Of a stretch of 64,000 nucleotides of DNA, positions 19,383 through 43,383 are shown one piece after another. Where the stretch lies: NCBI GenBank assembly GCA_049584655.1, contig JBAUYF010000007.1, positions 27,288-91,287 on the forward strand. Reading direction: 5' to 3'. Each line of letters begins with the position of its first letter. Within the stretch, counting starts at the first letter, position 1. The stretch comes from Thermoplasmata archaeon (lineage in GTDB: Archaea > Thermoplasmatota > Thermoplasmata > Lutacidiplasmatales > UBA184). The notes under the pieces were generated by a model. That model did no database searches. It saw nothing but the letters and a program-made list of their open reading frames with translations, and was not told the DNA's origin. The position numbers and the translations under genes are program-made.

Positions 19383-19934
19383 TTATGAGGTCGCGTCGAC
19401 GACCGCCGCCCCGAGCGATGCGGCTTCGTCTTCGATCCACGCGAGCACGACGAAATACCAGCTCATGGCGAGCAGTAGCGGGAGTTCCGGATGGGTTCGA
19501 CCGAGCGGGTCAATCGACACGAGGGCCCCCACGAGCCGACCGGATTGACGAACCGGCTCGATCTCGAGTAACTTCGTCTCTTTCGAGTCGCAAAGATTCC
19601 ACGCCGGCACCAAGAGGCCCGCGCGTCGAAAGGAGTAGGATGCGCCCCCCCGGATTTCTAAGAGATGAGACCGCGAATGGACGGTCATCCGGGCGAGGTC
19701 GACGTTCTGCCCCGGTCGACGCGCGGTGAGATGTGGGTTGAGAAAGCCGGAGCGCTTGAGCGTCCACTCGTCCCCGACGGTCGCCACATGCGCGAGCGAC
19801 CCAATGTGCTTTTCCCAACTCATGACCGCGACGGTCGCGTCGCCGGCCTTTAACGCGTACTCGTGCCGGTCTTCCGTCGATCGGACCCAACGAACGGTGT
19901 TGAGGTCGGCGGCAGCGAAGGCAGTGAGTTCCAT
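19383..19934 (-). CDS. Hypothetical protein (183 aa)
   Basis: Normal composition. No family recognised with confidence. Confidence 0.5.
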   Translation of the reverse strand: MELTAFAAADLNTVRWVRSTEDRHEYALKAGDATVAVMSWEKHIGSLAHVATVGDEWTLKRSGFLNPHLTARRPGQNVDLARMTVHSRSHLLEIRGGASYSFRRAGLLVPAWNLCDSKETKLLEIEPVRQSGRLVGALVSIDPLGRTHPELPLLLAMSWYFVVLAWIEDEAASLGAAVVDATS

Positions 19935-20021: not shown

Positions 20022-20738
20022 TCACGATTTTGACGGCGAACTCCGACGAAGACCATCCAGGTCGTGCTTCAACAGATCGAGCTCATGGACCGCCACATCG
20101 CTTTCACCTTCCGAAGCGAGCGGAGTGAGGGGAATGGCCGCCCGGGCCGGAGGGGGAGGAGGCGGCGGAGGAGGCAAGAACGAAGTCGCCGGGCCGGCCA
20201 CGGATGCCGCCTTCACGGAGACCCCCCGTACGCCCCCCGGGTCCAACCTTCGAGACTTCGAAGAAATCACCGCCGGAGTACGGGGAGGGGGTGACGGAAG
20301 TGTCCGTAGGGATCCCGCGGAGGTCGATTTTCTTGGCGGGGCCGTTGGAGTTTCCTCCGGTTCATCCTCCTCGGCGAAATAGGAAATGACTCCGCCAACA
20401 CCGGCCACGATTCCGAGCACCAAGAACAAGATCCACAGATGGAAACCGCCGGCACCCACCGTCGGCTCGAGCGACCAGGTGAGAAGGGCTCCGACCAGCA
20501 GGATCCAGGATGGGAAGAGCAGCGGGAAGCAGCCCCCGATGCGGCGGAAGAAATCATTCGGGGCGCGCCGTTCTGCTGGATCCGGTCGACCATGTACATC
20601 GGGAAGGGGCCGACCGGTAACGCGGGGGGCGGGCGGGTCCGGGGAGGACGCAGGCGTCAGGGCGTCTTCGTCCCAATCGGGGGCATACATGCTGTGGGGA
20701 GCCATCGGCGCAATCTGGAATAATTCGAGGAGGGCCAA
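20022..20738 (-). CDS. Membrane protein with two TM helices and a Pro-rich C-terminal region that includes a PPPPPPPPP run
   Basis: Hydrophobic helices at about aa 70-120. The plus strand (ggagg)n at 20140-20180 is the reverse complement of the poly-Pro codons. Confidence 0.5.
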   Translation of the reverse strand: MALLELFQIAPMAPHSMYAPDWDEDALTPASSPDPPAPRVTGRPLPDVHGRPDPAERRAPNDFFRRIGGCFPLLFPSWILLVGALLTWSLEPTVGAGGFHLWILFLVLGIVAGVGGVISYFAEEDEPEETPTAPPRKSTSAGSLRTLPSPPPRTPAVISSKSRRLDPGGVRGVSVKAASVAGPATSFLPPPPPPPPPARAAIPLTPLASEGESDVAVHELDLLKHDLDGLRRSSPSKS

Positions 20739-21122: not shown

Positions 21123-21488
21123 CTACCGCTTCGCGACGAGAAACAAGATCCCGCTGATCAAGAGGCAGAGGGAGGCCAGGATCGCAAGAACGCCGGACGC
21201 AAAACCTAACGCGAGCCATCCGACGACCGCCATTACCACGAGGATGATCCCGGCCGCCAAACTCTCGTCGCCCCATCGTGACCTTCCGAGAATCGCAAAA
21301 AATCCGGCGATAAGCCCGACGACAATGAAAACGATCGACTGATCCAGGGACGAGAACGACGCCCCCGCTCGATGAGTCGCGAGGAAAAAGGCGCCCTTGA
21401 AGAAGTCAAAGATGCCGTCTAAGACCAGTAAGGCAGCCCCCAGCAAGCCAAACAGCAATCCAAGCGGGCGGTCCGAGCGGTACGTCAC
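21123..21488 (-). CDS. Small 4-TM membrane protein
   Basis: 121 aa and hydrophobic. The C-terminal LVAKR end resembles the 9775 and 31263 family. Confidence 0.5.
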   Translation of the reverse strand: MTYRSDRPLGLLFGLLGAALLVLDGIFDFFKGAFFLATHRAGASFSSLDQSIVFIVVGLIAGFFAILGRSRWGDESLAAGIILVVMAVVGWLALGFASGVLAILASLCLLISGILFLVAKR

Positions 21489-21765
21489 AGTCCCTCCTCA
21501 GCTACCGCGTGCGCCTCCGGCTCGGGAGGATATAAACCGTTCACGCTCGGCCCCGACGGCATGTCGCATTCTAGCTCTCCGAATGACATTCGATCCGAGC
21601 GAGTTAGTGTCTAGCCCCGGAGCAAGGAAGCCTCCCCTTGCCCAAATCGGGAATCTCGACGAACAGTCGCGCCCGAATACGCAACTGTCGTGGCCCATCC
21701 GTCGTAGGAAAGGTCGGAAATCCGAGGGCAAGGTTTTTCATCTCGGCCCGGACTCCAAACGCCGC

Positions 21766-21872
21766 GGCCGGGATGGGGTAGCTTGGCCTATCCTGGGGGA
21801 CTGTGGATCCCTCGACCCGGGTTCAAAGAGAGGCGGGAACCACCCCACCTCTGGGAACTCTCGGTCCCGGCC
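21766..21872 (+). tRNA. Candidate intron-containing tRNA (probably tRNA-His, anticodon GTG), with a 31-nt intron in the T-loop (59/60)
   Basis: G(-1)+GCCGGGA pairs with TCCCGGC+C73. T8, A14 and G18G19 are present. D-stem is GGGT/ATCC. Anticodon arm is GGGGA-CTGTGGA-TCCCT. T-arm is CCGGG-TTCAAA[31 nt]T-CTCGG. One extra nucleotide sits at position 26. Confidence 0.4.
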
Positions 21873-22775
21873 CTACCGCCGCCGCCCCGGCTTCTTCGCG
21901 CCCCTGCGGGACGATTTCTTACGGTTCGACGCCTTCGATGGACCGCGCTCAAGTTCGGCGAGTTTTTCGGGGAGCGCCGACAACGAGTAGTCCGCCCACG
22001 CGGCTCCCCAGCTTCGAAGATCTTCGGGGGTTAGTCCCCAACCGTGAAGCGACGATGCGCGCCCGATGGGAGTGACCCCTTCCACCGAAGCGGCAGCTTC
22101 CATATCGAATCGGGAGTCCCCGATCAAAAAGATCCGTGCGCCCGGATACCGCCGTCGGTACTCCTGGAGATGTTCCCGCTTCGTGCCTTGCGCCGAGCCC
22201 AAGACATCCTCGAACCAGAATCGCAATCCCTCGCGTTCGAGCAGCAAATCCGCCATCTCGGTTTCCGCTCCCGTCGAGATCACGAGGGTCCAGTGTTCTT
22301 GTGAGAGCCGTTTCAATAGCTTGGGCACCTCGGGGAACGGGCCCGCATGGGCATACGCTTCCGTTACCTTGCGGCCGTGGAACGTCCGGGCTGTGGCGGC
22401 TCGGAGCGTTGCCGGGGCATTTCCGTAGAGCTGGGACAGTTGAGCTTCGAATGGCATGCCGGTCGTGGCGAGGTAGTGAATGCGACCCTCTTCGATCGGA
22501 GTTCCAAAGGCGGTATGCATGACATCCGCGGCCACATGGCTGATGAGGGAGATATCGTCGAGAATCGTGCCATCCATGTCGAAGACGACGACTCCGCGTT
22601 CAACGTGAGTAGGAACAACTTCGCGCGGGAGGGTCGGGAGCCGGGAGATTTCGGAGAACTGGGAGGCGGCAGAGGAGACGATCGGGAGTTCGAGGCCTTC
22701 CAAGGGAGCGTCCGGAGGAGCGGGTTCCGGAGGTGGTGACGAGGAGTGAGAGGGCTTGCGGGCGCGCGGCTTCAT
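21873..22775 (-). CDS. HAD-superfamily hydrolase (phosphoglycolate phosphatase-like) with a basic C-terminal tail
   Basis: VVVFDMDGTILDD (DxD motif I), LVISTG, and IGDSRFDMEAA (motif IV). The ORF N-terminus is probably over-extended. The tail is KASNRKKSSRRGAKKPGRRR. Confidence 0.7.
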   Translation of the reverse strand: MKPRARKPSHSSSPPPEPAPPDAPLEGLELPIVSSAASQFSEISRLPTLPREVVPTHVERGVVVFDMDGTILDDISLISHVAADVMHTAFGTPIEEGRIHYLATTGMPFEAQLSQLYGNAPATLRAATARTFHGRKVTEAYAHAGPFPEVPKLLKRLSQEHWTLVISTGAETEMADLLLEREGLRFWFEDVLGSAQGTKREHLQEYRRRYPGARIFLIGDSRFDMEAAASVEGVTPIGRASSLHGWGLTPEDLRSWGAAWADYSLSALPEKLAELERGPSKASNRKKSSRRGAKKPGRRR

Positions 22776-33950: not shown

Positions 33951-35549
33951 TCACGCCCCGACCGCCACGAAATGCTGTGCGGCGGAAGAGATCGCGGCAA
34001 GGACCGGCTGCGGGTAAATGCCCAGCGCCACGATCGCAAAGGTCGCGAGGCCGATCGCCATCGCGCGACCGTACCCGATTCCTCCGAGCGGTAAAGGATC
34101 GGCACCGGACGCGCCCTGAATACCTGCGGTATGCGGAGAACCCGCGATGGCACGGTCGGGTTGGTCCATGTACATCACCTTGAGGACGCGTGCGTAGTAG
34201 AAGACGGATAGGGCGCTATTGAGCAGCCCCGCGATCGCAAGATAGACGAAGAACCCTTGCGCCTGGATCGCGGACGAGAAGAGAATGAATTTCGACACGA
34301 AGCCGATCGTGAGGGGAACGCCGGCGAGCGAGAGTAGCATCAGCGCGAACGACGTACCCAGCAACGGTCGTCGAACCCCGAATCCCTTCCAGTCTTCGAT
34401 GAGGGGGCCGACGCCGAGCGATGCCGCCGCCGCCACGACGAGAAACGCGCCGGCTTTCATGAAGACATGGGCGAAGATCTGGAGGGTAGCACCCGTGATC
34501 GCCGGGGCGGTTCCGATCGTGATCCCGATCAGCATGTAGCCTGCTTGCGAGATCGACGAATAGGCGAGCATTCGCTTCATCGAGCGCTGCATCAAGGCCA
34601 AGACATTCCCCACGGTCATCGTCAGCACGGCCATCGCGCCGAGCGTGATCTGTAGTATCGGCCCGAGGTCCGTGGGGGTCGACCCATTTCCGATCGGACT
34701 TGTCGCGGAGCTTACAAAGAGGACCGGACCCAAGAAGACGAGGAAGAAGGCGAAAAGGCCGATTTTCTTTGTCCCACCGGCGAGGAACGCCGAGACATCA
34801 TTCGGCGCGCCGTCGTAGACATCGACCGCCCATGCGTGGAAGGGAACGGCCGTTACCTTGAACGCCAAGCCGGCGATCAGAAACCCATAGCCGACGAGTA
34901 CGAGGTTCGGCAAGCCGACGGAGCCGCCTTCGGCTCGGATCGCGAAGAGATTCGTCGTTCCATAGGCTCCGAAGATCAGTGACGCTCCGTAGAACGAGAG
35001 CACCGTCGAGAGCGCGCCGATAATGTAGAACTTCATCGCGGCTTCCATGCCACGCGGATCCTTCCGCAGGTAGCCGACCATCAGATACGTGGAGATCCCC
35101 GTGATCTCGATCGCGATCAGCAGAAAGATCAGGTCGGCTGCCACCGCGACCAAGAGCATTCCAAGGGTCGCGATCAAAAGAAGCCCGAAGAACGTCGCCG
35201 CTCCGGGGTCGCGCGAGGGGCGCGAGAGCGACGCGAGTGCTACGAGTAAGGCGCTGACGAGAAAGATCCCTTGGAAGATCAGACCCAACGAGCTGAACGT
35301 AAAGAGGGCAGTCAGTGAAGGATGGAGAGGATCGATCTGCGACGCGGGGATCGTCGCCATCCCGGAGAGCGGCGAAAAGCGTAGGTCCGCCACGACCAAC
35401 AGTAACGCAGCCAGTGTACCCACGACCGCGACCCCGCCGAGCACTTCGAGCCGCCGGACCCCGACGACCTCGAGGAGAAAGACGAGAAGCGCGGCCGCGA
35501 GGAGGATGAGCTCGGGCAGCCATGGAAGGGCGAACGAGGCGAGATTCAT
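33951..35549 (-). CDS. nuoN: NADH-quinone oxidoreductase subunit N
   Basis: 532-aa antiporter-like subunit. It is the last gene of the nuo cluster. Confidence 0.85.
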   Translation of the reverse strand: MNLASFALPWLPELILLAAALLVFLLEVVGVRRLEVLGGVAVVGTLAALLLVVADLRFSPLSGMATIPASQIDPLHPSLTALFTFSSLGLIFQGIFLVSALLVALASLSRPSRDPGAATFFGLLLIATLGMLLVAVAADLIFLLIAIEITGISTYLMVGYLRKDPRGMEAAMKFYIIGALSTVLSFYGASLIFGAYGTTNLFAIRAEGGSVGLPNLVLVGYGFLIAGLAFKVTAVPFHAWAVDVYDGAPNDVSAFLAGGTKKIGLFAFFLVFLGPVLFVSSATSPIGNGSTPTDLGPILQITLGAMAVLTMTVGNVLALMQRSMKRMLAYSSISQAGYMLIGITIGTAPAITGATLQIFAHVFMKAGAFLVVAAAASLGVGPLIEDWKGFGVRRPLLGTSFALMLLSLAGVPLTIGFVSKFILFSSAIQAQGFFVYLAIAGLLNSALSVFYYARVLKVMYMDQPDRAIAGSPHTAGIQGASGADPLPLGGIGYGRAMAIGLATFAIVALGIYPQPVLAAISSAAQHFVAVGA

Positions 35550-35559
35550 GGCCTCCGCC

Positions 35560-37044
35560 TCATGGGAACCCGTACACCGGAGAGTTCGAGATCACGTTCA
35601 CCAAGAGCCCAGGTAAGATCCCGTAAAGCACGATCAGAGCCACGAGGATCGCCATGCCGGCGATCTCGTACCACGGGAGGTCATGGACCCGTTCGGAGAA
35701 TCCCTTCGGCGGACCGAAGAGCGTCCGCTGCATCATCCAGATGTAAAACGCCGCCGTTACCACCAGAATGATGAGGGGCAATAGGACCCAGTAGCCGATC
35801 GCATCCCAGGTGGCGAGGAAAGCGGAGAACTCTGCTGGGAAACTCACCAGCGCGGGAAGCCCTAAGGACGCGAGTGACCCGATCATGATCATCGTAGCTA
35901 AGGTAGGGCTCGCCGGCGTGATGCCGCCGAGCGTGGGGATATCGCGGGTCCCGAAGGTGTGATGGACGCTCCCCGAGGCCATGAAAAGAAGCGCGCTCAC
36001 GACTCCGTGGGCAAACATCAGAAGGACGGCCGCGAGCAGGCCGAGCGACGAGTAGACGGCGATCGCGAGCAGCACGATCCCCATGTGATTGATCGAGGAG
36101 TACGCGACCATTCGCTTCAGGTCCCGCTGCGCGAGCGAGACGAGCGAACCCCAGATGATCGAGGCAAACGCAACGACGTAGAGGAGCGGCGTCAAATGGG
36201 ACATGCCCTGCGGAAGGACCTCCACCGCCCACCGGATCAGCCCGTAGCCCCCGAGCTTGAGGAGGAGGCCCGCAAGAAGAACGGATCCGCCGGTCGGCGC
36301 TTCCACGTGGGCATCCGGCAGCCACGTGTGGAAGGGGACGATCGGGAACTTGACGCCAAAGCCGAAGAAGAGGGCGAGGAATATGAACGATTGGACGACG
36401 GCCGAGAGCCCTTGTGCGGCCGAGAAGATACTCCCAAAGTCGAAGGACGAGGCGCCCGAATAGAACGCCAAGACGAGCAGCCCGGTGAGCATGACGATGC
36501 TCGCAACGTGGGTGTAAATGAAGAACTTGATCGCCGCGTAGCGCCGGTTCGGCCCGCCCCAATAGCCGATGATGAAGAACATCGGGACGAGGACCGCTTC
36601 CCAAAAGAGGAAAAAGAGGAGAATATCGAGGGCGATGAACACCCCGAATGAGCCGAGACATGTCAGGAGAACAAGTCCGAACCAGGCACTCGGCCGCTTG
36701 GACTCGTTCCAGCTGTAGACTACGGTGGCGATCTGAAGGAATCCCGTGAGCAGGATCAGGATGAGACTGATCCCGTCGATCCCGACAGTGTAGTTGATGT
36801 GGAGCCAGTAGAGCGAGATCCATGCGTACGATTCCGTGTAATTGTAGAGCGGAACTCCCGTCGCACTCCGCCCGGCCCAGGAGCCGAATCCGAGGAACAT
36901 TGCGGCGATCTCGATCAGGAAGAGGATCGAGGTGCCGAGCGCCACGTACCGGGCCGATCGCCCCGAGGCGAAGGTCAGGACCGTCCCCAGGACCAGGGTA
37001 GCCAGCGTGAACGAGAGGATCGGGAACACGTCAGCCGCCCCCAA
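35560..37044 (-). CDS. nuoM: NADH-quinone oxidoreductase subunit M
   Basis: 494-aa antiporter-like subunit with characteristic WLPDAHVEAPTGGS. Confidence 0.85.
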   Translation of the reverse strand: MGAADVFPILSFTLATLVLGTVLTFASGRSARYVALGTSILFLIEIAAMFLGFGSWAGRSATGVPLYNYTESYAWISLYWLHINYTVGIDGISLILILLTGFLQIATVVYSWNESKRPSAWFGLVLLTCLGSFGVFIALDILLFFLFWEAVLVPMFFIIGYWGGPNRRYAAIKFFIYTHVASIVMLTGLLVLAFYSGASSFDFGSIFSAAQGLSAVVQSFIFLALFFGFGVKFPIVPFHTWLPDAHVEAPTGGSVLLAGLLLKLGGYGLIRWAVEVLPQGMSHLTPLLYVVAFASIIWGSLVSLAQRDLKRMVAYSSINHMGIVLLAIAVYSSLGLLAAVLLMFAHGVVSALLFMASGSVHHTFGTRDIPTLGGITPASPTLATMIMIGSLASLGLPALVSFPAEFSAFLATWDAIGYWVLLPLIILVVTAAFYIWMMQRTLFGPPKGFSERVHDLPWYEIAGMAILVALIVLYGILPGLLVNVISNSPVYGFP

Positions 37045-38920
37045 TTTTCGATACGAGCCAGGGCGCGACGTAAAGCAGGATCAGGACGAAGGCGACGAGG
37101 CCCGTGACGACATAGGCGGCGTAGTCCGAGACAACTCCACTCTGCAGTGTCCTCGCCTGCCGCGAGAGAGCCGCGAACATCCGTTCGAACCCGCGAATGG
37201 TGCCGTCGATTACGTAGCGGTCCACGAAATCGGCGAGTCGCGCGAGGGCGTAGACCCCCTTCTCACCGATCGCGTCGTACGCGTCCTTCACGTAATACCG
37301 ATTGAGGAGCAACCGCCGAATCGACTGCGCAGGCGAACCCTCGGGTAGCACGTAGACCCGTCCATTGCCCCAGAGCACGAACGCCGTGAGTATACCCGCG
37401 AGTCCGAGCACGACTGATCCTACGGAGAGCAGGATCTCCGTTGTACCGTATCCCGGAGGAATACCGGCCCCCGTGAGGAGCGATGCGAATCCAGGAGAGA
37501 AGATCAAGAGACCCGCTACGACGGCGAGTGCCGAGAGGATGAGCATGGGGATCCGCATCGCCCAGGGCGCCTCGTGAGCCTCCGGAAGAGTTGGATCCCG
37601 CGGGGAATCCCCGCTGAACGTCAGGAACCATACCCGGAAAATGTAGTACGCCGTGAGAAAAACGGACGCGAAAGCGAGGAGGAAGAATGGCCAGTAGAGG
37701 GGGTGGCTCCCGAGCTGGAGATAGACCGAAGCCAGCACGTCATCTTTGCTCCAGAACCCGGCGAACGGAGGGATCCCGGCGAGCGCCAAGCCACCGATCG
37801 CAAACGCGGCCGCGGTGAATTTCATCGGCTTGCGGAGCCCGCCCATCTTGAACAGGTCCTGCGTGCCGATGGCGTGAATGACGGCGCCCGCGGAGAGGAA
37901 AAGAAGAGCCTTGAAGAACGCATGGGTGAAGAGATGGAACATCCCGACCATCGCAAAGCCGGCGCCGACGGCCATCACCATGTAGCCGAGTTGGGAGATC
38001 GTCGAGTACGCGATGACCCGCTTGATGTCGGGATGCACGACCGCCATCGAGGCGGCGTAGAACGTGGTGAAACCGCCGATCGCGACGATCGCGAGCGAAT
38101 CGATCGACGTGAAACCGATGAAGAGCGACGTGACGGCCAGCAGGTAGACGCCCGCCGCCACCATCGTCGCCGCGTGAATGAGCGCCGAAACGGTGGTCGG
38201 CCCTTCCATGGCGTCGGGCAGCCAAACATCGAGGGGGAACTGGGCGGACTTACCGGCAGCGCCGGCGAGGATCATCAGGCCGGCGAGCGTGATGAGTGGG
38301 GCTGTGCTGGTGGCGCCGACGAGGAAGGATTGCCCCCCACTCACGAAAATAAATCCATTCGCGGCCCAACCGCCATTCGGGCCGGAGAGGGCGTAGACCT
38401 GGAAGTAGATGAAAATCCCGAGCAGAAACAACACATCGCCGATCCGCGTGACGAGGAACGCCTCCTTGGCCGCACTTGCCGCGCTGGGCCGGGAATAGTA
38501 GAATCCAATGAGGAAGTACGAGCAGACGCCGACCAACTCCCAAAAGACAAAGAACTGGAGGAGGTTATCCGCCAGGACCAGTCCGGTCATAGCTGCGAGG
38601 AACAGCGAGAGCTCCGCGTAGTAGCGGGGGAGACCCTCCTCGTGATGCATGTAGCCGATCGAATACAGCATGACGAGGAATCCGACCACCGTCACGACGA
38701 TGAGCATCAGGGCCGAGACCGGGTCGACTAGGATCCCCATCACGAGGGAGAATCCGTTCGGGAACGTGCCGGGAGACCCGGCGAGGTGGATCCACGTGTA
38801 GCTTTGTTGGAAGTAATGGCCGGGACTCAGGATCTCGGCGACCGCGACGAGCACGCCGATGACCATCGAAACGCCGGACGCGCCCACGGCGATCCATCCG
38901 CCCCACTCGAGGCGGCGCAT
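37031..38920 (-). CDS. nuoL: NADH-quinone oxidoreductase subunit L
   Basis: 629 aa with LPDAMEGPTTVSALIHAATMV. The conserved TM1 (FLVPLLPALAFVLIGLLG) is encoded in-frame upstream of ATG 38920 with no canonical start codon. Confidence 0.8.
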   Translation of the reverse strand: MRRLEWGGWIAVGASGVSMVIGVLVAVAEILSPGHYFQQSYTWIHLAGSPGTFPNGFSLVMGILVDPVSALMLIVVTVVGFLVMLYSIGYMHHEEGLPRYYAELSLFLAAMTGLVLADNLLQFFVFWELVGVCSYFLIGFYYSRPSAASAAKEAFLVTRIGDVLFLLGIFIYFQVYALSGPNGGWAANGFIFVSGGQSFLVGATSTAPLITLAGLMILAGAAGKSAQFPLDVWLPDAMEGPTTVSALIHAATMVAAGVYLLAVTSLFIGFTSIDSLAIVAIGGFTTFYAASMAVVHPDIKRVIAYSTISQLGYMVMAVGAGFAMVGMFHLFTHAFFKALLFLSAGAVIHAIGTQDLFKMGGLRKPMKFTAAAFAIGGLALAGIPPFAGFWSKDDVLASVYLQLGSHPLYWPFFLLAFASVFLTAYYIFRVWFLTFSGDSPRDPTLPEAHEAPWAMRIPMLILSALAVVAGLLIFSPGFASLLTGAGIPPGYGTTEILLSVGSVVLGLAGILTAFVLWGNGRVYVLPEGSPAQSIRRLLLNRYYVKDAYDAIGEKGVYALARLADFVDRYVIDGTIRGFERMFAALSRQARTLQSGVVSDYAAYVVTGLVAFVLILLYVAPWLVSKIGGG

Positions 38921-39029
38921 CTTGGTGCCGAGCAGTCCGATGAGGACGAAGGCGAGGGCCGGGAGGAGCGGGACGAGGAAAGCGCCTCCGAATACCCAAT
39001 CGAGCGACCCGTTCGTTGTTCGATCCCTC

Positions 39030-39347
39030 CTATAGTTTGAGTTGCGTCGCTTCGCCGACGTTGATCGAACCGCGGAGCCGGTTGAGGGCGAGCACGATCG
39101 CGAGACCTACGGCAACCTCGGTGGCGGCGAGGCCGATCAGTACTACGGCGATCGATTGACCGTTCAAGCCGGACGGCGCGGGGAGAAAAGCCGCAAAGTA
39201 CACGAAATTGAGGATCGTGGCATTCATGCCGATCTCGATGGCGATCAGGAGAAGAATGAAGTTCCGGCGCGTCAGGATCCCGAAGATTCCCACGCCGAGC
39301 AAGGACGCGGAAAGCGCCAGAAATCCCGCCAACGGAAGGGTCGTCAT
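39030..39347 (-). CDS. nuoK: NADH-quinone oxidoreductase subunit K
   Basis: 105 aa from ATG (cat 39345-39347), MTTLPLAGFLAL.... ATGA overlap with the nuoJ stop. Confidence 0.8.
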   Translation of the reverse strand: MTTLPLAGFLALSASLLGVGIFGILTRRNFILLLIAIEIGMNATILNFVYFAAFLPAPSGLNGQSIAVVLIGLAATEVAVGLAIVLALNRLRGSINVGEATQLKL

Positions 39348-39889
39348 TCGCGGCCCTCCCGAACAAGGTACAGCGCGCCGCTCAAGGCCGCGAGCATGAC
39401 CAGGCCCAGCAGGATGAGCCACGCGCCATTCGCATTGAACAGGTTGGCGGAGAGAAGGGTGGGGTCGTAGGTCTGGATCGACGTCGAGGATTGCGGAAGC
39501 TCGCTCAGTACCGAGCCGACCATGATGACCACGAGCACGGCGAGCGCGACGGGGATCGGGCCGATGCCCGTCGCCGCATCGCGGGAGAAGATCCGTTTAC
39601 GCGTGACCATCACCCCGAAGAGAAGGAGAATCGTGACGGCGCCCGCGTAGACGCCAAGTTGGAGTACTCCGAGGAAAGGCGCCTCGAGGAGGAAGTAGAT
39701 CGCCGAGAGATCGATGAAGAAGAGCGCGACCCAGAGGATGGTGTGCACAAGCTCGCGGACGAGCAGCGCCAAGATGGCCGTGACGACGGCGACGACGCCG
39801 AGCGCGGCGAATGCCACCAGCTCCAGGTTCACGAGTGAGTCCCCCAGAAGAGACACTCCTTGGGGCAGACCGAAATGCACGTACCGCAT
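39344..39889 (-). CDS. nuoJ: NADH-quinone oxidoreductase subunit J
   Basis: Hydrophobic and about 170 aa. The true start is probably about 18 codons downstream of the track start. Confidence 0.75.
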   Translation of the reverse strand: MRYVHFGLPQGVSLLGDSLVNLELVAFAALGVVAVVTAILALLVRELVHTILWVALFFIDLSAIYFLLEAPFLGVLQLGVYAGAVTILLLFGVMVTRKRIFSRDAATGIGPIPVALAVLVVIMVGSVLSELPQSSTSIQTYDPTLLSANLFNANGAWLILLGLVMLAALSGALYLVREGRE

Positions 39890-40632
39890 CGGACGCAGTC
39901 GGAGTCGTTGATGACCGGCTCCTTCCAGATTCGCTTCGTTTGCTTTTCACCGGGCTTCGGCTCCGGCTTCGGGATGTCGAGCATCGTGATGCACTGTGTC
40001 GGGCAGTCCCGCGAGCACGCGTTGCAGCCGATGCAGAGGGGGGGGTCGAGCAGGATGGCGTCCTCGTTGGCCGGACGCTCCAAGCGGATCGGGTTCATGG
40101 GCAGCTTGCGCTCGAAGATCTCGAACATCTTTTGCGGCGTGTAGACCATCTCCGAGCGCCGCGTCACGGAGAGTTCGTACTTCGTGGTCATCGTGAGGCA
40201 GCCCTCGGGGCACGCGTCGGAGCAGAACCCGCAGTAGCTGCATTTTCCGTAGTCGATCTGCGGGCACTTTTTCGGGTGCTTGGGGTCGCCGCCCGGGACC
40301 GAGACCATCTCGATGCAAATGTCCGGACAACTGAAGGCACAGAGGTTGCACGAGATGCAGGTGTTGATGTTCAGGGCGTGCACCCCGCGATAATTGTCCC
40401 ACACCTGCCCGACGCCGAACGGCTTCCCCGAGGCAACGCGCAATTCGTCCCGGAATTTCGGATCTTCGAGCCGCTCGAACGGATAGACGATCGTCGACGG
40501 GCGGATGAGGCTCTTCGCAAACTGCCGGGCGGCGGTGGCCAGCGGTTTGACAACGTAGAGGATCGGGTTGTCGTCGCTCGCCGTTTTCTGGGTGCTGTTG
40601 GTTGCCATGTGCTCCGTTCCTTTAGCCACCAA
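39829..40632 (-). CDS. nuoI: NADH-quinone oxidoreductase subunit I with four 4Fe-4S ferredoxin motifs
   Basis: CISCNLCAFSCP, CSYCGFCSDACP, CIGCNACSRDCP and CVRCGTCISVCP. This is twice the usual two clusters. Confidence 0.8.
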   Translation of the reverse strand: MVAKGTEHMATNSTQKTASDDNPILYVVKPLATAARQFAKSLIRPSTIVYPFERLEDPKFRDELRVASGKPFGVGQVWDNYRGVHALNINTCISCNLCAFSCPDICIEMVSVPGGDPKHPKKCPQIDYGKCSYCGFCSDACPEGCLTMTTKYELSVTRRSEMVYTPQKMFEIFERKLPMNPIRLERPANEDAILLDPPLCIGCNACSRDCPTQCITMLDIPKPEPKPGEKQTKRIWKEPVINDSDCVRCGTCISVCPKECLFWGTHS

Positions 40633-41752
40633 TGCTCGGGACGCAACCGAATACGGGTAGGCATTTCACGAGGACTACGACGGCCGCGAGAACGACGCTG
40701 AGGAGGGCCAGTGGGATCATTCGGTTCCACCCCACGCGCAAGAGCTGGTCGGTGCGCACGCGCGGCAACGAGGCCCGGATCCAGACGAAGACGCCAAACA
40801 CGGCGTAGGTTTTGATCATGAACCAGAAGATGCCCGCGAGGGGAAAGTTGGTGAGCGCGCTCGGGACGTACGACGGGAGCGTCCATCCGCCGAGAAACAA
40901 CAGGACGACGAGGATGCTCCCGACGAGGGCGCGGAGGTAATCCGCGAGCATGAAGAACGCGAAGAGCATGCCCCCGTACTCGGTGTTCCAGCCCTCGACA
41001 AGCTCAGCTTCGGCCTCCGGTAGGTCGAAGGGAATGCGTTCCATCTCGGCGAGCATTCCGGCGACGAAGACGATCAGGGCGATGAAGAGGGGTCCCCAGA
41101 ACCAGTAATTCTGTTGTTCGAGCACGATCGTGTTCAGATCGAAGCTCCCGGCAAGCACGATCACGGCGACGACGGCCAGAAGCAGCGGCACCTCGTAGGC
41201 GATCATCTGCGCCGCCGAGCGCATGCCGCCCATGAGCGAGTACTTGTTGTTGCTCGACCACGCACTGATGAAAATGAAGAGGGGAGCGAACGAGAAGATC
41301 GCCAACGCGAGGAGCAAGCTCAGCGGGAGCGCCCCACTGTTCCATCCGGTCGAAATCGGGAGGACGCCAAAGATCACGAGCGACGTGACCATGTAGGCCG
41401 TGGGTCCCGAGAAGAAACCGAGAGCGTCGGCCTCGCGCGGCTTGAACGTCTGCTTATGGAACAACTTGAGCCCGTCCGCAAAATTCTGCAACAGGCCGGC
41501 GTAGCCGACATGCATCGCGCCCCGCCGGTCCATGAAGCGGCCCAAGAGCTTGCGTTCCCACCAGATGAGCAGGATCGTGTTGAGCATGCTGGCGGCGAGC
41601 AGGATCGCGGCAAAGATCAGGACCGCGATCGTGAGAATCAAACCGCTGTTCGTGATCCAGTCGCTGAGTGGGGCCGGGAGCACGGAGCCGAGGGCATGGA
41701 AGAGGGTGTTCGAGAGGAAGAACGCCACCGAAAACAACGAATCAGAGGTCAT
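40622..41752 (-). CDS. nuoH: NADH-quinone oxidoreductase subunit H
   Basis: 376 aa with 8 TM segments. NuoH/ND1 motifs are present (WERKLLGRFMDRRG, GYAGLLQNFADGLK). Confidence 0.85.
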   Translation of the reverse strand: MTSDSLFSVAFFLSNTLFHALGSVLPAPLSDWITNSGLILTIAVLIFAAILLAASMLNTILLIWWERKLLGRFMDRRGAMHVGYAGLLQNFADGLKLFHKQTFKPREADALGFFSGPTAYMVTSLVIFGVLPISTGWNSGALPLSLLLALAIFSFAPLFIFISAWSSNNKYSLMGGMRSAAQMIAYEVPLLLAVVAVIVLAGSFDLNTIVLEQQNYWFWGPLFIALIVFVAGMLAEMERIPFDLPEAEAELVEGWNTEYGGMLFAFFMLADYLRALVGSILVVLLFLGGWTLPSYVPSALTNFPLAGIFWFMIKTYAVFGVFVWIRASLPRVRTDQLLRVGWNRMIPLALLSVVLAAVVVLVKCLPVFGCVPSIGG

Positions 41753-41768
41753 CGCGCCGGCTCCCTCC

Positions 41769-42914
41769 CTAGCGGTCGGACTCCCCGACGCAGACGTCCA
41801 CGCTGCCCATGATCGGCGGAATGTCCGCGACGCGATAGCCGATCATATACTGCTTGGAGGCGCTCAAGTTCGCAAAGACGGGGGACCGGAATTTCACGCG
41901 ATACGGATGTTCCGCCCCTTCGTTGACCACGTACGCCTGCGCTTCCCCATGCGGCTCTTCGACCGACGAAAAACCGATGCCCTTGGGGTAATTCCTCTTG
42001 AGCAGGTAGCCCTCCTTACCGACGGGGGCGTAGGGGGCACCGAGCCAGCGGGGCAACGGAGACGCCAGTACGGGACCGGGATGTTTCTCGAGCCAAGTTA
42101 GGATCTGGCGAATGATGTTGACGGACTGTCGAAGTTCCTCCATCCGGACAAGGTAGCGGCCCGTCACATCCGCGCTATCGGCCTGGGCGACTTCGAAATT
42201 AACCTGCCCGTAGGCGGAATACGGCCGATCGCGGCGCAGGTCACGGGCGACGCCGGCCGAGCGGAGCATCGGTCCGGTGACTCCGTGCGCGACACAGTCA
42301 TTGGCCTTGAGCACACCGAGACCATCGCACCGCCGGCGAAAGATCGTCGATCCCATGCACAGGCGGTCGTATTCGACGAACCGGTCGTCCAACCAGTCGA
42401 GAACCTTCCGCGCCTGGTCGATGAATCCGTTGGGGAGGTCGTTGCGAACGCCGCCCACGCGCATGTATTCGTAGGTCAATCGACCGCCGGTGTAGCTCTG
42501 GAATAGGTCGAGAACCAAGTCGCGGTCTCGCATCCCATAGAGGAACGGGCTCATCAGCCCCAGGTCCTGCACGAACGCCGCGTACCACATCAGATGCGAC
42601 GCGATGCGTTGGAATTCATCGGACATCGTCCGAATGAACTCGGCCCGTTCCGGCGGATCGATATGGAGCGACTTTTCGGCCGCCAGAATATAGAGATGCT
42701 CCCAGGCCATGCCGGCAACGTAGCAGCAACGGTCCATCAGCGTGATGACCTCGTTATAATGGCGGTCCTCGCTGATCTTTTCGATCCCGCGATGCAAGTA
42801 GCCCATTTCCGGGTCCACGTCGAGAATGATCTCGCCATCGATCTTGACCCGAAGGTTCCAGAGACCATGGGTCATGGGGTGCTGAGGCCCCATATTGATC
42901 CACATTTCAGACAT
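41769..42914 (-). CDS. nuoD: NADH-quinone oxidoreductase subunit D (49 kDa)
   Basis: MSEMWINMGPQHPMTHGLWNLRV...RGIEKI.... ATG (cat 42912-42914). Confidence 0.85.
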   Translation of the reverse strand: MSEMWINMGPQHPMTHGLWNLRVKIDGEIILDVDPEMGYLHRGIEKISEDRHYNEVITLMDRCCYVAGMAWEHLYILAAEKSLHIDPPERAEFIRTMSDEFQRIASHLMWYAAFVQDLGLMSPFLYGMRDRDLVLDLFQSYTGGRLTYEYMRVGGVRNDLPNGFIDQARKVLDWLDDRFVEYDRLCMGSTIFRRRCDGLGVLKANDCVAHGVTGPMLRSAGVARDLRRDRPYSAYGQVNFEVAQADSADVTGRYLVRMEELRQSVNIIRQILTWLEKHPGPVLASPLPRWLGAPYAPVGKEGYLLKRNYPKGIGFSSVEEPHGEAQAYVVNEGAEHPYRVKFRSPVFANLSASKQYMIGYRVADIPPIMGSVDVCVGESDR

Positions 42915-43383
42915 GGCGCGTCTTGACCTCCAACTCCTCGGGCTCGTGAAGTTTAAACGACCGAAGCAGCGGATGGAATTGGTATCCATCCGGCATCAGT
43001 AAATGGCGGAGGTCGGGGTGATGGTCGAAGGTGATGTCGACCATTTCCCAGGCCTCCCGCTCATGCCAATTGGCGGACGGCCAGACCGGCGTCGCGCTTT
43101 CGATGTGGGGGTTGTCGGCCGGGAGATCAGAGGAGAGAAGCAGGTATTGCTTTTCCACGTCGGACCACAGAACGTAGAACGCCTCGCGGTGGTCGACCCA
43201 GTCGATTCCACCGACCATCGACAAATGGCGGAAGCCGAGCTGATCGCGTAAGGCGCGGAACACGTCGAGCGCACCTTCCCTGCGAAATCGAACGCGCCCA
43301 ACAAATCCTTCGAACGGCTCGACCCCGAGGAGGCGGTCTCCCACGATGGGAGTCAACCGTCCCGCCACGTCGTCTGGCTGCAT
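42907..43383 (-). CDS. nuoC: NADH-quinone oxidoreductase subunit C (30 kDa)
   Basis: 158 aa. DHHPDLRHLLMPDGYQFHPLLRSF is typical of NuoC. Confidence 0.8.
   Translation of the reverse strand: MQPDDVAGRLTPIVGDRLLGVEPFEGFVGRVRFRREGALDVFRALRDQLGFRHLSMVGGIDWVDHREAFYVLWSDVEKQYLLLSSDLPADNPHIESATPVWPSANWHEREAWEMVDITFDHHPDLRHLLMPDGYQFHPLLRSFKLHEPEELEVKTRHV

Follow-up and report, generated by a model that had tools for sequence, protein, structure and literature searches.

A tRNA-His(GUG) gene with a probable bulge-helix-bulge intron in its T-loop, conserved across a clade of Thermoplasmata archaea

The splice motif of archaea, a bulge-helix-bulge (BHB) structure, has a 3-4-3 hBHBh' geometry and is cut after the second base of each bulge (PMC3239211, PMC5829648). 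According to reviews, the Euryarchaeota, which have α4 or α'2 splicing endonucleases, carry introns only at position 37/38, in strict motifs (PMC4090602, PMC4033280). The splicing endonuclease (EndA) of Thermoplasma acidophilum, which has been characterized structurally, is of the α'2 type with narrow specificity, and introns in the T-loop are generally ascribed to the Crenarchaeota and their relatives (PMC6379350). The closest precedents for an intron between T-loop positions 59 and 60 come from ARMAN-2, in which pre-tRNA-Cys has a 59/60 intron with a relaxed hBH motif that is cleaved in vitro and pre-tRNA-Pro is interrupted at 53/54 and 59/60 by introns with the strict motif (PMC3239211).

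Here we describe a locus in a 64-kb stretch of DNA (the window, in which all positions are counted unless a related locus is named) and find that positions 21766-21872 of its forward strand very probably constitute a functional tRNA-His(GUG) gene of a Thermoplasmata archaeon with a protein-spliced BHB intron at 59/60. We group this case with the known introns because the same mechanism and insertion site are documented in ARMAN-2, which bears out the remark in the initial annotation of the window that this noncanonical site is known from some archaea. The mechanism and the 59/60 site are already known; the lineage, the tRNA, and the fixation across a clade are new, and a full-text search of the literature on noncanonical tRNA introns in Thermoplasmata found no report.

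The locus resembles those of ARMAN-2 in having its insertion at 59/60 in the T-loop and a BHB-type motif on the T-stem, and the ARMAN-2 Pro intron has the strict hBHBh' motif, like most of the Thermoplasmata relatives described below. ARMAN-2 differs, however, in belonging to the DPANN lineage, in having an ε2 endonuclease of broad specificity, and in carrying such introns in other tRNAs; its introns are shorter (13 nt in tRNA-Cys), and 56% of its tRNA genes are disrupted (PMC3239211), whereas a single intron, which is fixed, is at issue in the Thermoplasmata clade. The introns of a 2008 study, as far as that study is cited in two later papers (PMC6379350, PMC4033280), were missed by standard tRNA finders, as is the one described here. 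In the same accounts, the organisms concerned have heterotetrameric (αβ)2 endonucleases in which a specific loop confers tolerance of relaxed motifs, several introns per gene are frequent, and introns of different genes can be related (transposition); unlike those introns, the one in the window has no second copy within the 64 kb. Canonical archaeal introns at 37/38 have the same 3-4-3 geometry and the same cuts after the second bulge base, with EndA and RtcB expected to act in both cases, but their motif is made from anticodon-loop bases and the anticodon stem, whereas the motif here is made from U54-A57 and the T-stem.

Organization of the gene in the window

The window has a G+C content of ~62% and encodes the archaeal markers Topo VI-B, the small subunit of the archaeal/eukaryotic primase, and PAC2 (Pfam). 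A CoaBC scan of species-representative genomes returned 39 loci, and the closest CoaBC relatives are uncultured Thermoplasmata MAGs, with identities of 87%, 80%, and then 63-70%. These sequence comparisons place the host, an archaeon, in the Thermoplasmata. Among the other genes of the window, the reverse-strand open reading frame (ORF) at 20022-20738 encodes 238 aa with a run of 11 prolines, Pro/Ser-rich low-complexity segments, and a hydrophobic stretch; Pfam gave no match for this ORF or for the reverse-strand ORFs at 19383-19934 and 21123-21488, the latter hydrophobic. A run of long same-strand ORFs with a third-position G+C of 0.77-0.86 and hydrophobic N termini occupies the reverse strand at 33951-42989 and looks like a membrane-complex operon, possibly one resembling NADH-quinone oxidoreductase.

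The tRNA gene begins with a genome-encoded G(-1) at 21766, which stands opposite the discriminator C73 at 21872 and is an identity element of tRNA-His. The 5' exon (21767-21827), delimited by ARAGORN on the spliced sequence and by a 3'-truncated Rfam match, comprises tRNA positions 1-59, namely the 5' strand of the acceptor, the D-arm, the anticodon arm, the variable loop, the 5' strand of the T-stem, and T-loop bases U54-A59. The 3' exon (TCTCGGTCCCGGCC, 21859-21872) supplies positions 60-73, that is, U60, the 3' strands of the T-stem and acceptor, and C73. Read in order, the elements are G(-1), GCCGGGA, UG, GGGU-AGCUUGGCCUA-UCCU, G, the anticodon arm GGGGA-CUGUGGA-UCCCU, CGAC, CCGGG, UUCAAA, 31 nt of insert, U, CUCGG, UCCCGGC, and C. 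The acceptor strands GCCGGGA and TCCCGGC occupy 21767-21773 and 21865-21871, the anticodon GTG (His) lies at 21803-21805 with U33 before it, and the T-stem strands CCGGG and CUCGG lie at 21817-21821 and 21860-21864. The T-loop itself (UUCAAA at 21822-21827 and U at 21859) is divided by the 31-nt intron GAGAGGCGGGAACCACCCCACCTCTGGGAAC at 21828-21858. Its deletion restores a canonical cloverleaf that ARAGORN, given the spliced sequence only, calls a 76-nt tRNA-His(gtg) with the mature T-loop UUCAAAU; the predicted junction at 59/60 joins ...GGGUUCAAA to UCUCGGUCCCGGCC.

Thus, every sequence element named in the initial annotation (G(-1), acceptor, anticodon arm, T-arm, and insert) is present as described there, and its assignment of the gene to tRNA-His(GUG) and of the insert to the 59/60 position holds. 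Its D-arm needs correction. The proposed pairing of GGGU with AUCC leaves two bases before the anticodon stem, and in the register of ARAGORN and Rfam, which is shifted by one base, the pairs are G10-U25, G11-C24, G12-C23, and U13.U22, giving standard positions for U8, A14, G18, G19, and A21.

The gene was also correctly said to abut the stop codon of a HAD gene. A convergent gene on the reverse strand (21873-22775) encodes a 300-aa HAD-family hydrolase, confirmed by Pfam (HAD_2/Hydrolase/HAD), and although it lies outside the RNA gene, its stop codon (CTA as read on the forward strand, 21873-21875) directly adjoins C73. The 3' exon in the window therefore does not encode CCA, C73 being followed by CTA. 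When the 6 nt after C73 were compared, most relatives had the same CTA of the HAD stop codon, and nine copies, among the matches listed, had CCACGC, which may represent an encoded CCA end in one subclade.

The suggestion that standard tRNA scans might overlook this gene proved right, and until the 31 nt are removed or the region is cut, both programs pass over it. ARAGORN found 0 tRNAs in the 64-kb window, and Rfam found no tRNA there at the gathering score; at E <= 10 over 21600-22000, Rfam again gave no tRNA match and returned only a meaningless match to a miRNA model. The Rfam tRNA model matches the window gene only if the search region stops at the exon end, in which case it gives a 3'-truncated match to 21767-21827 (23 bits, E = 0.0037, model positions 1-57 of 71). 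With its intron option, ARAGORN called a tRNA-His in 55 of the ~140 related copies, among the matches listed, and none in the window. These calls (75-92 nt, as against 105-108 nt for the true gene) start at or near G(-1) and finish within the intron, whose bases are taken as a false T-arm or as the 3' strand of the acceptor, so that none has the true 3' end. Examples of such miscalled genes are L003 4924-4999, L007 4929-5004, and L009 4949-5024, with 52 other related loci.

Other kinds of interrupted gene do not fit. A group I or group II self-splicing intron is ruled out, since the insert is 31 nt long and the expected catalytic fold runs to hundreds of nucleotides, and Rfam models of such introns matched nothing in the window at the gathering score, nor anything over 21600-22000 at E <= 10. 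A split or permuted tRNA gene is ruled out by exons that are colinear and 31 nt apart, and no second copy of the T-arm or 3' end lies within the 64-kb window. Searches of the window for transposed copies of the intron (<= 3 mismatches) and for a duplicated tRNA 3' half such as an att site would provide (23-mer match) were likewise negative, and further tRNA-like T-arms were no more numerous in the window than expected by chance. A 14-mer on the reverse strand at 40291-40304 (TCTCGGTCCCGGGC), inside the reverse-strand ORF 39829-40632, matches the tRNA 3' exon with 1 mismatch; this is probably a chance match, because the adjoining T-loop bases differ and 2 of 100 shuffles yield two such matches.

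Conservation of the gene, its insert, and an upstream element

The same tRNA-His gene lies beside the HAD gene, ~1.1 kb upstream of CoaBC, in 19-20 related genomes, these being the relatives whose locus reaches far enough upstream (the locus of the nearest relative, L001, with 87% identity, stops just short). In 19 genome relatives, the exons are the same as in the window or differ by one D-loop base. The inserts, by comparison, are 31-32 nt long and comprise 19 different sequences in 20 genes. A metagenome probe of 33 nt of exon sequence, from the anticodon stem to A59, which an intronless gene would match equally well, detected at least 120 contigs, the majority of which came from peat and soil. 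At least 140 further copies of the window gene were recovered, making at least 141 in all, 4 of which are broken by a contig end. The comparison with related genomes that the initial annotation had proposed thus turned up the same gene, with its 59/60 insert, in both the genomes and the contigs.

Among the matches listed, an insert separates A59 from U60 in every one of the 137 copies whose 3' end is complete, and none of these copies is intronless; the insert is 29 nt long in 13 copies, 30 nt in 1, 31 nt in 20, and 32 nt in 103. There are at least 113 distinct complete inserts, as against near-invariant exons. The 3' exon reads TCTCGGTCCCGGCC in 135 of the 137 copies among the matches listed. 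In the first of the two exceptions, G52.U62 has become G-C, which strengthens the pair, and in the second (L144, 1427-1534), A7-U66 has become G7-C66, a compensatory change with one partner on each side of the intron. All 84 aligned genes have the G(-1):C73 pair, and position -1 is G in all 120 distinct upstream sequences among the matches listed. Because the gene recurs in 19-20 genomes and at least 120 contigs, always with the insert at 59/60, the recurrence of a split gene with so constant an insertion site far exceeds chance. By its distribution in these sequences, the 59/60 intron is fixed across a Thermoplasmata clade in which such introns were thought to be absent.

Upstream of the gene, the only strongly conserved block besides the last 4 nt lies at -39 to -26 (120 distinct upstream sequences, among the matches listed). 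In the window, it is represented by a promoter-like BRE/TATA-type element, GCAAGGTTTTTCAT, on the forward strand at 21728-21741, about -39 to -26 from G+1; the consensus of the block is G-AAA-CC-TTTT-C-TT, with up to 1.9 bits per position, and forms a box resembling GAAACCTTTTCTT. In the same 120 upstream sequences, conservation is also seen in the four bases just ahead of the gene, C-G-T-G(-1). In archaeal promoters, a purine-rich BRE precedes a T-rich TATA box that lies ~25-30 nt upstream of the start. By its position and composition, the -39 to -26 box is a candidate promoter, transcription from which would leave a very short 5' leader. A scan for bacterial-type promoters and terminators gave nothing relevant, as expected for an archaeal host.

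The splice motif and alternatives to splicing at 59/60

We registered the motif by counting from the ends of the insert, for which an alignment is not needed. The outer helix h is the 5-bp T-stem (49-53/61-65). In the central helix H of the window copy, U54, U55, C56, and A57 (21822-21825) face 21856, 21855, 21854, and 21853, respectively, in the intron segment GGGA (21853-21856). This geometry leaves a 5' bulge B1 of A58, A59, and the first intron base G (21826-21828; splice site between 21827 and 21828) and a 3' bulge B2 of A, C, and U60 (21857-21859; splice site between 21858 and 21859). The remaining intron bases (21829-21852) form, by their fold and covariation, a hairpin h' in which A2-G6 pair with C21-U25 and G8-G10 pair with C17-C19.

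Intron bases n-2, n-3, n-4, and n-5 stand opposite U54, U55, C56, and A57 throughout, and among the matches listed, the pairs with U54, U55, and C56 form in all 113 distinct introns, the pair with A57 forms in 81 (strict motif) and is absent in 32 (relaxed motif), and the intron ends in AC in 84. On the intron side of H, relatives have UGAG (71), GGAG (15), GGAA (11), or UGGG (5), as well as GGGA, UGAA, and others; opposite U54 and U55, the intron alternates between A and G, so that the pairs are retained. Among the matches listed, the 137 complete copies all share the mature T-loop UUCAAAU only if the cut is made at 59/60. Splice registers at 58/59 and 60/61 were rejected because the mature T-loop would be altered or the central helix lost.

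We tested covariation over the full structure in 84 distinct genes whose introns are 32 nt long, aligned without gaps, and found 97.1% of cells paired, compared with 30-68% after the partners were slid by 1-3 columns. Outer helix h was paired in 100% of cells, and 7 of the 10 pairs of intron hairpin h' showed changes on both sides, with 91% of cells paired (84 introns). None of 500 shuffles matched the observed value on any covariation measure, and RNAalifold independently returned the cloverleaf helices, the T-stem across the insert, and the intron hairpin. The apex of the hairpin, GGGG/CCCC, is nearly invariant (columns 71-74/80-83 of alignment A2, 84 genes) and may be a stability or recognition element; the basal pairs covary freely.

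The BHB motif that the initial annotation had left to be sought at the splice sites can therefore be folded in the family, in 113 introns among the matches listed and with covariation, but in the window itself the helix is imperfect. Both the window copy and L002, the nearest relative having the gene, contain only three pairs in the central helix, U54-A, U55.G, and C56-G, followed by an A57.G mismatch. The two 3-nt bulges are present in the window copy (A58 A59|G and A C|U60), which is thus a relaxed form of the BHB. In the predicted minimum-energy fold of the window precursor, GGGUUC pairs with GAACUC and part of the T-stem is opened. When the T-arm is folded with its intron, the BHB conformer of the window and L002 is less stable than the local optimum by 4.0-4.5 kcal/mol, compared with 1.4-3.3 kcal/mol in relatives with the strict motif. 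We rejected the window's energy optimum, in which G53-C56 pair with the intron sequence GAAC, as the functional fold because this register is not kept in relatives whose introns end in UGAGAC. The unpaired state of A57 is concentrated in certain D-loop variants, being found, for instance, in 16 of the 18 genes whose D-loop is the shorter GGTTATCC; on account of this grouping it is inherited rather than sporadic and is evidently tolerated.

As modeled, the weak central helix in the window and L002 and the competing fold of the window precursor count against splicing at 59/60, and, by analogy, so do the narrow α'2 EndA of Thermoplasma acidophilum and the reviews that allow introns only at 37/38. 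We therefore considered whether the insert might instead be kept, so that the mature tRNA-His would bear an extra 31-nt T-loop hairpin and be functional in spite of its odd shape. The insert does fold into a stable hairpin and is present in every complete copy among the matches listed. What is conserved, however, goes beyond a mere hairpin to the requirements of the endonuclease, two 3-nt bulges exactly 4 bp apart, and in 113 of 113 distinct introns, among the matches listed, the 3' segment of the intron pairs with U54-C56, sequestering T-loop bases of the elbow between D-loop and T-loop. The elbow of every tRNA uses those T-loop bases. Moreover, the insert drifts freely (29-32 nt, 113 variants among the matches listed), as expected of a discarded spacer, and we regard its retention as very improbable. 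We give almost no credence to a dead tRNA-His gene broken by an insertion, with the working tRNA-His encoded elsewhere. The failure of gene finders to call the gene is what such a relic would lead one to expect, but its exons have stayed invariant while the adjacent CoaBC has diverged to 63-70% identity, the BHB geometry has been kept through compensatory changes, an acceptor change has been compensated across the insert, the promoter-like box upstream has been kept, and 0 of 137 sampled copies, among the matches listed, are intronless.

A rather unlikely alternative that nevertheless deserves some weight accepts the BHB intron and holds that the subclades with the relaxed motif, including the window, process it differently. 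For example, the first intron base, i1, might pair with n-5, leaving a 3-bp helix and an all-exonic bulge of A57-A59; processing of this kind would need an endonuclease whose specificity has broadened, or else mature-domain-dependent splicing. It would accommodate the 32 of 113 introns without the A57 pair (among the matches listed), which group by D-loop variant and are thus inherited, as well as the less favorable energy of the BHB conformer in the window, and i1 could pair with n-5 in 91 of the 113 introns among the matches listed (G-U in 74, U-G in 13, A-U in 2, and C-G in 2). Against it, the 7-nt T-loop is given only by cuts at 59/60, and every copy has an intact 3' bulge and T-stem, which would set the register for a symmetric enzyme. 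This possibility refines splicing of the BHB intron as the main explanation and does not replace it.

Proposed processing and its implications

From the gene structure, its conservation, the motif with its covariation, and the upstream box, all directly established, we infer how the gene is transcribed, how its transcript is cleaved at 59/60, ligated, and processed at its ends, and which enzymes act on it; the enzymatic steps draw on established knowledge of archaeal tRNA splicing. Transcription would start a few bases upstream of G(-1), from the BRE/TATA-like box ~30 nt upstream. In the precursor, the T-stem would stack on a helix formed by U54-U55-C56-(A57) and the 3' segment of the intron (GGGA in the window, UGAG in most relatives), leaving the 3-nt bulges A58-A59-i1 and i(n-1)-i(n)-U60 and folding the rest of the intron into a G+C-rich hairpin. 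The archaeal splicing endonuclease, EndA, would then cleave behind the second base of each bulge, and a ligase of the RtcB type would unite the exons to give the T-loop UUCAAAU. RNase P would be expected to keep G(-1), because it is encoded opposite C73, and, since C73 is followed by CTA and not by CCA, the CCA end would be added enzymatically after transcription. A tblastn search with M. jannaschii EndA, a query that we confirmed against PDB 1a79, found no match in the window or in any of the 159 related loci (1.18 Mb), as expected if the EndA gene is sited elsewhere.

Since UUCA, on which the central helix is built, is universal in T-loops, the motif should be able to form in any tRNA that has at 59/60 a short insert with YGAR-NN at its end, and this may explain why the 59/60 site recurs in unrelated archaea. 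The intron set described here bears on that question. We also put forward, as a speculation that we think unlikely, that the soil and peat Thermoplasmata clade needs 59/60 splicing for what is probably its only tRNA-His and that about a quarter of its lineages, the window included, have inherited the relaxed motif. If this were true and the endonuclease of the clade were of the narrow α'2 type, the rule that a narrow enzyme implies introns at 37/38 in strict BHB motifs only would fail; if the endonuclease were not narrow, broader specificity would have evolved independently in the clade.

For genome annotation, because gene finders miss or miscall the intron-bearing gene, genomes of the clade may seem to be without tRNA-His or may carry a wrong annotation of it, and a missed tRNA-His would affect the tRNA-count quality criteria applied to metagenome-assembled genomes. 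For this high-G+C Thermoplasmata clade, the -39 to -26 box could provide a model of the promoter. The 59/60 intron is a clear, clade-wide counterexample to the statement that euryarchaeal introns lie only at 37/38 (PMC4090602), and its more than 100 natural variants are ready material on what the local endonuclease tolerates. A T-loop intron that has become fixed might itself have a function, either in the order of processing or in blocking integrases that target the 3' half of tRNA genes.
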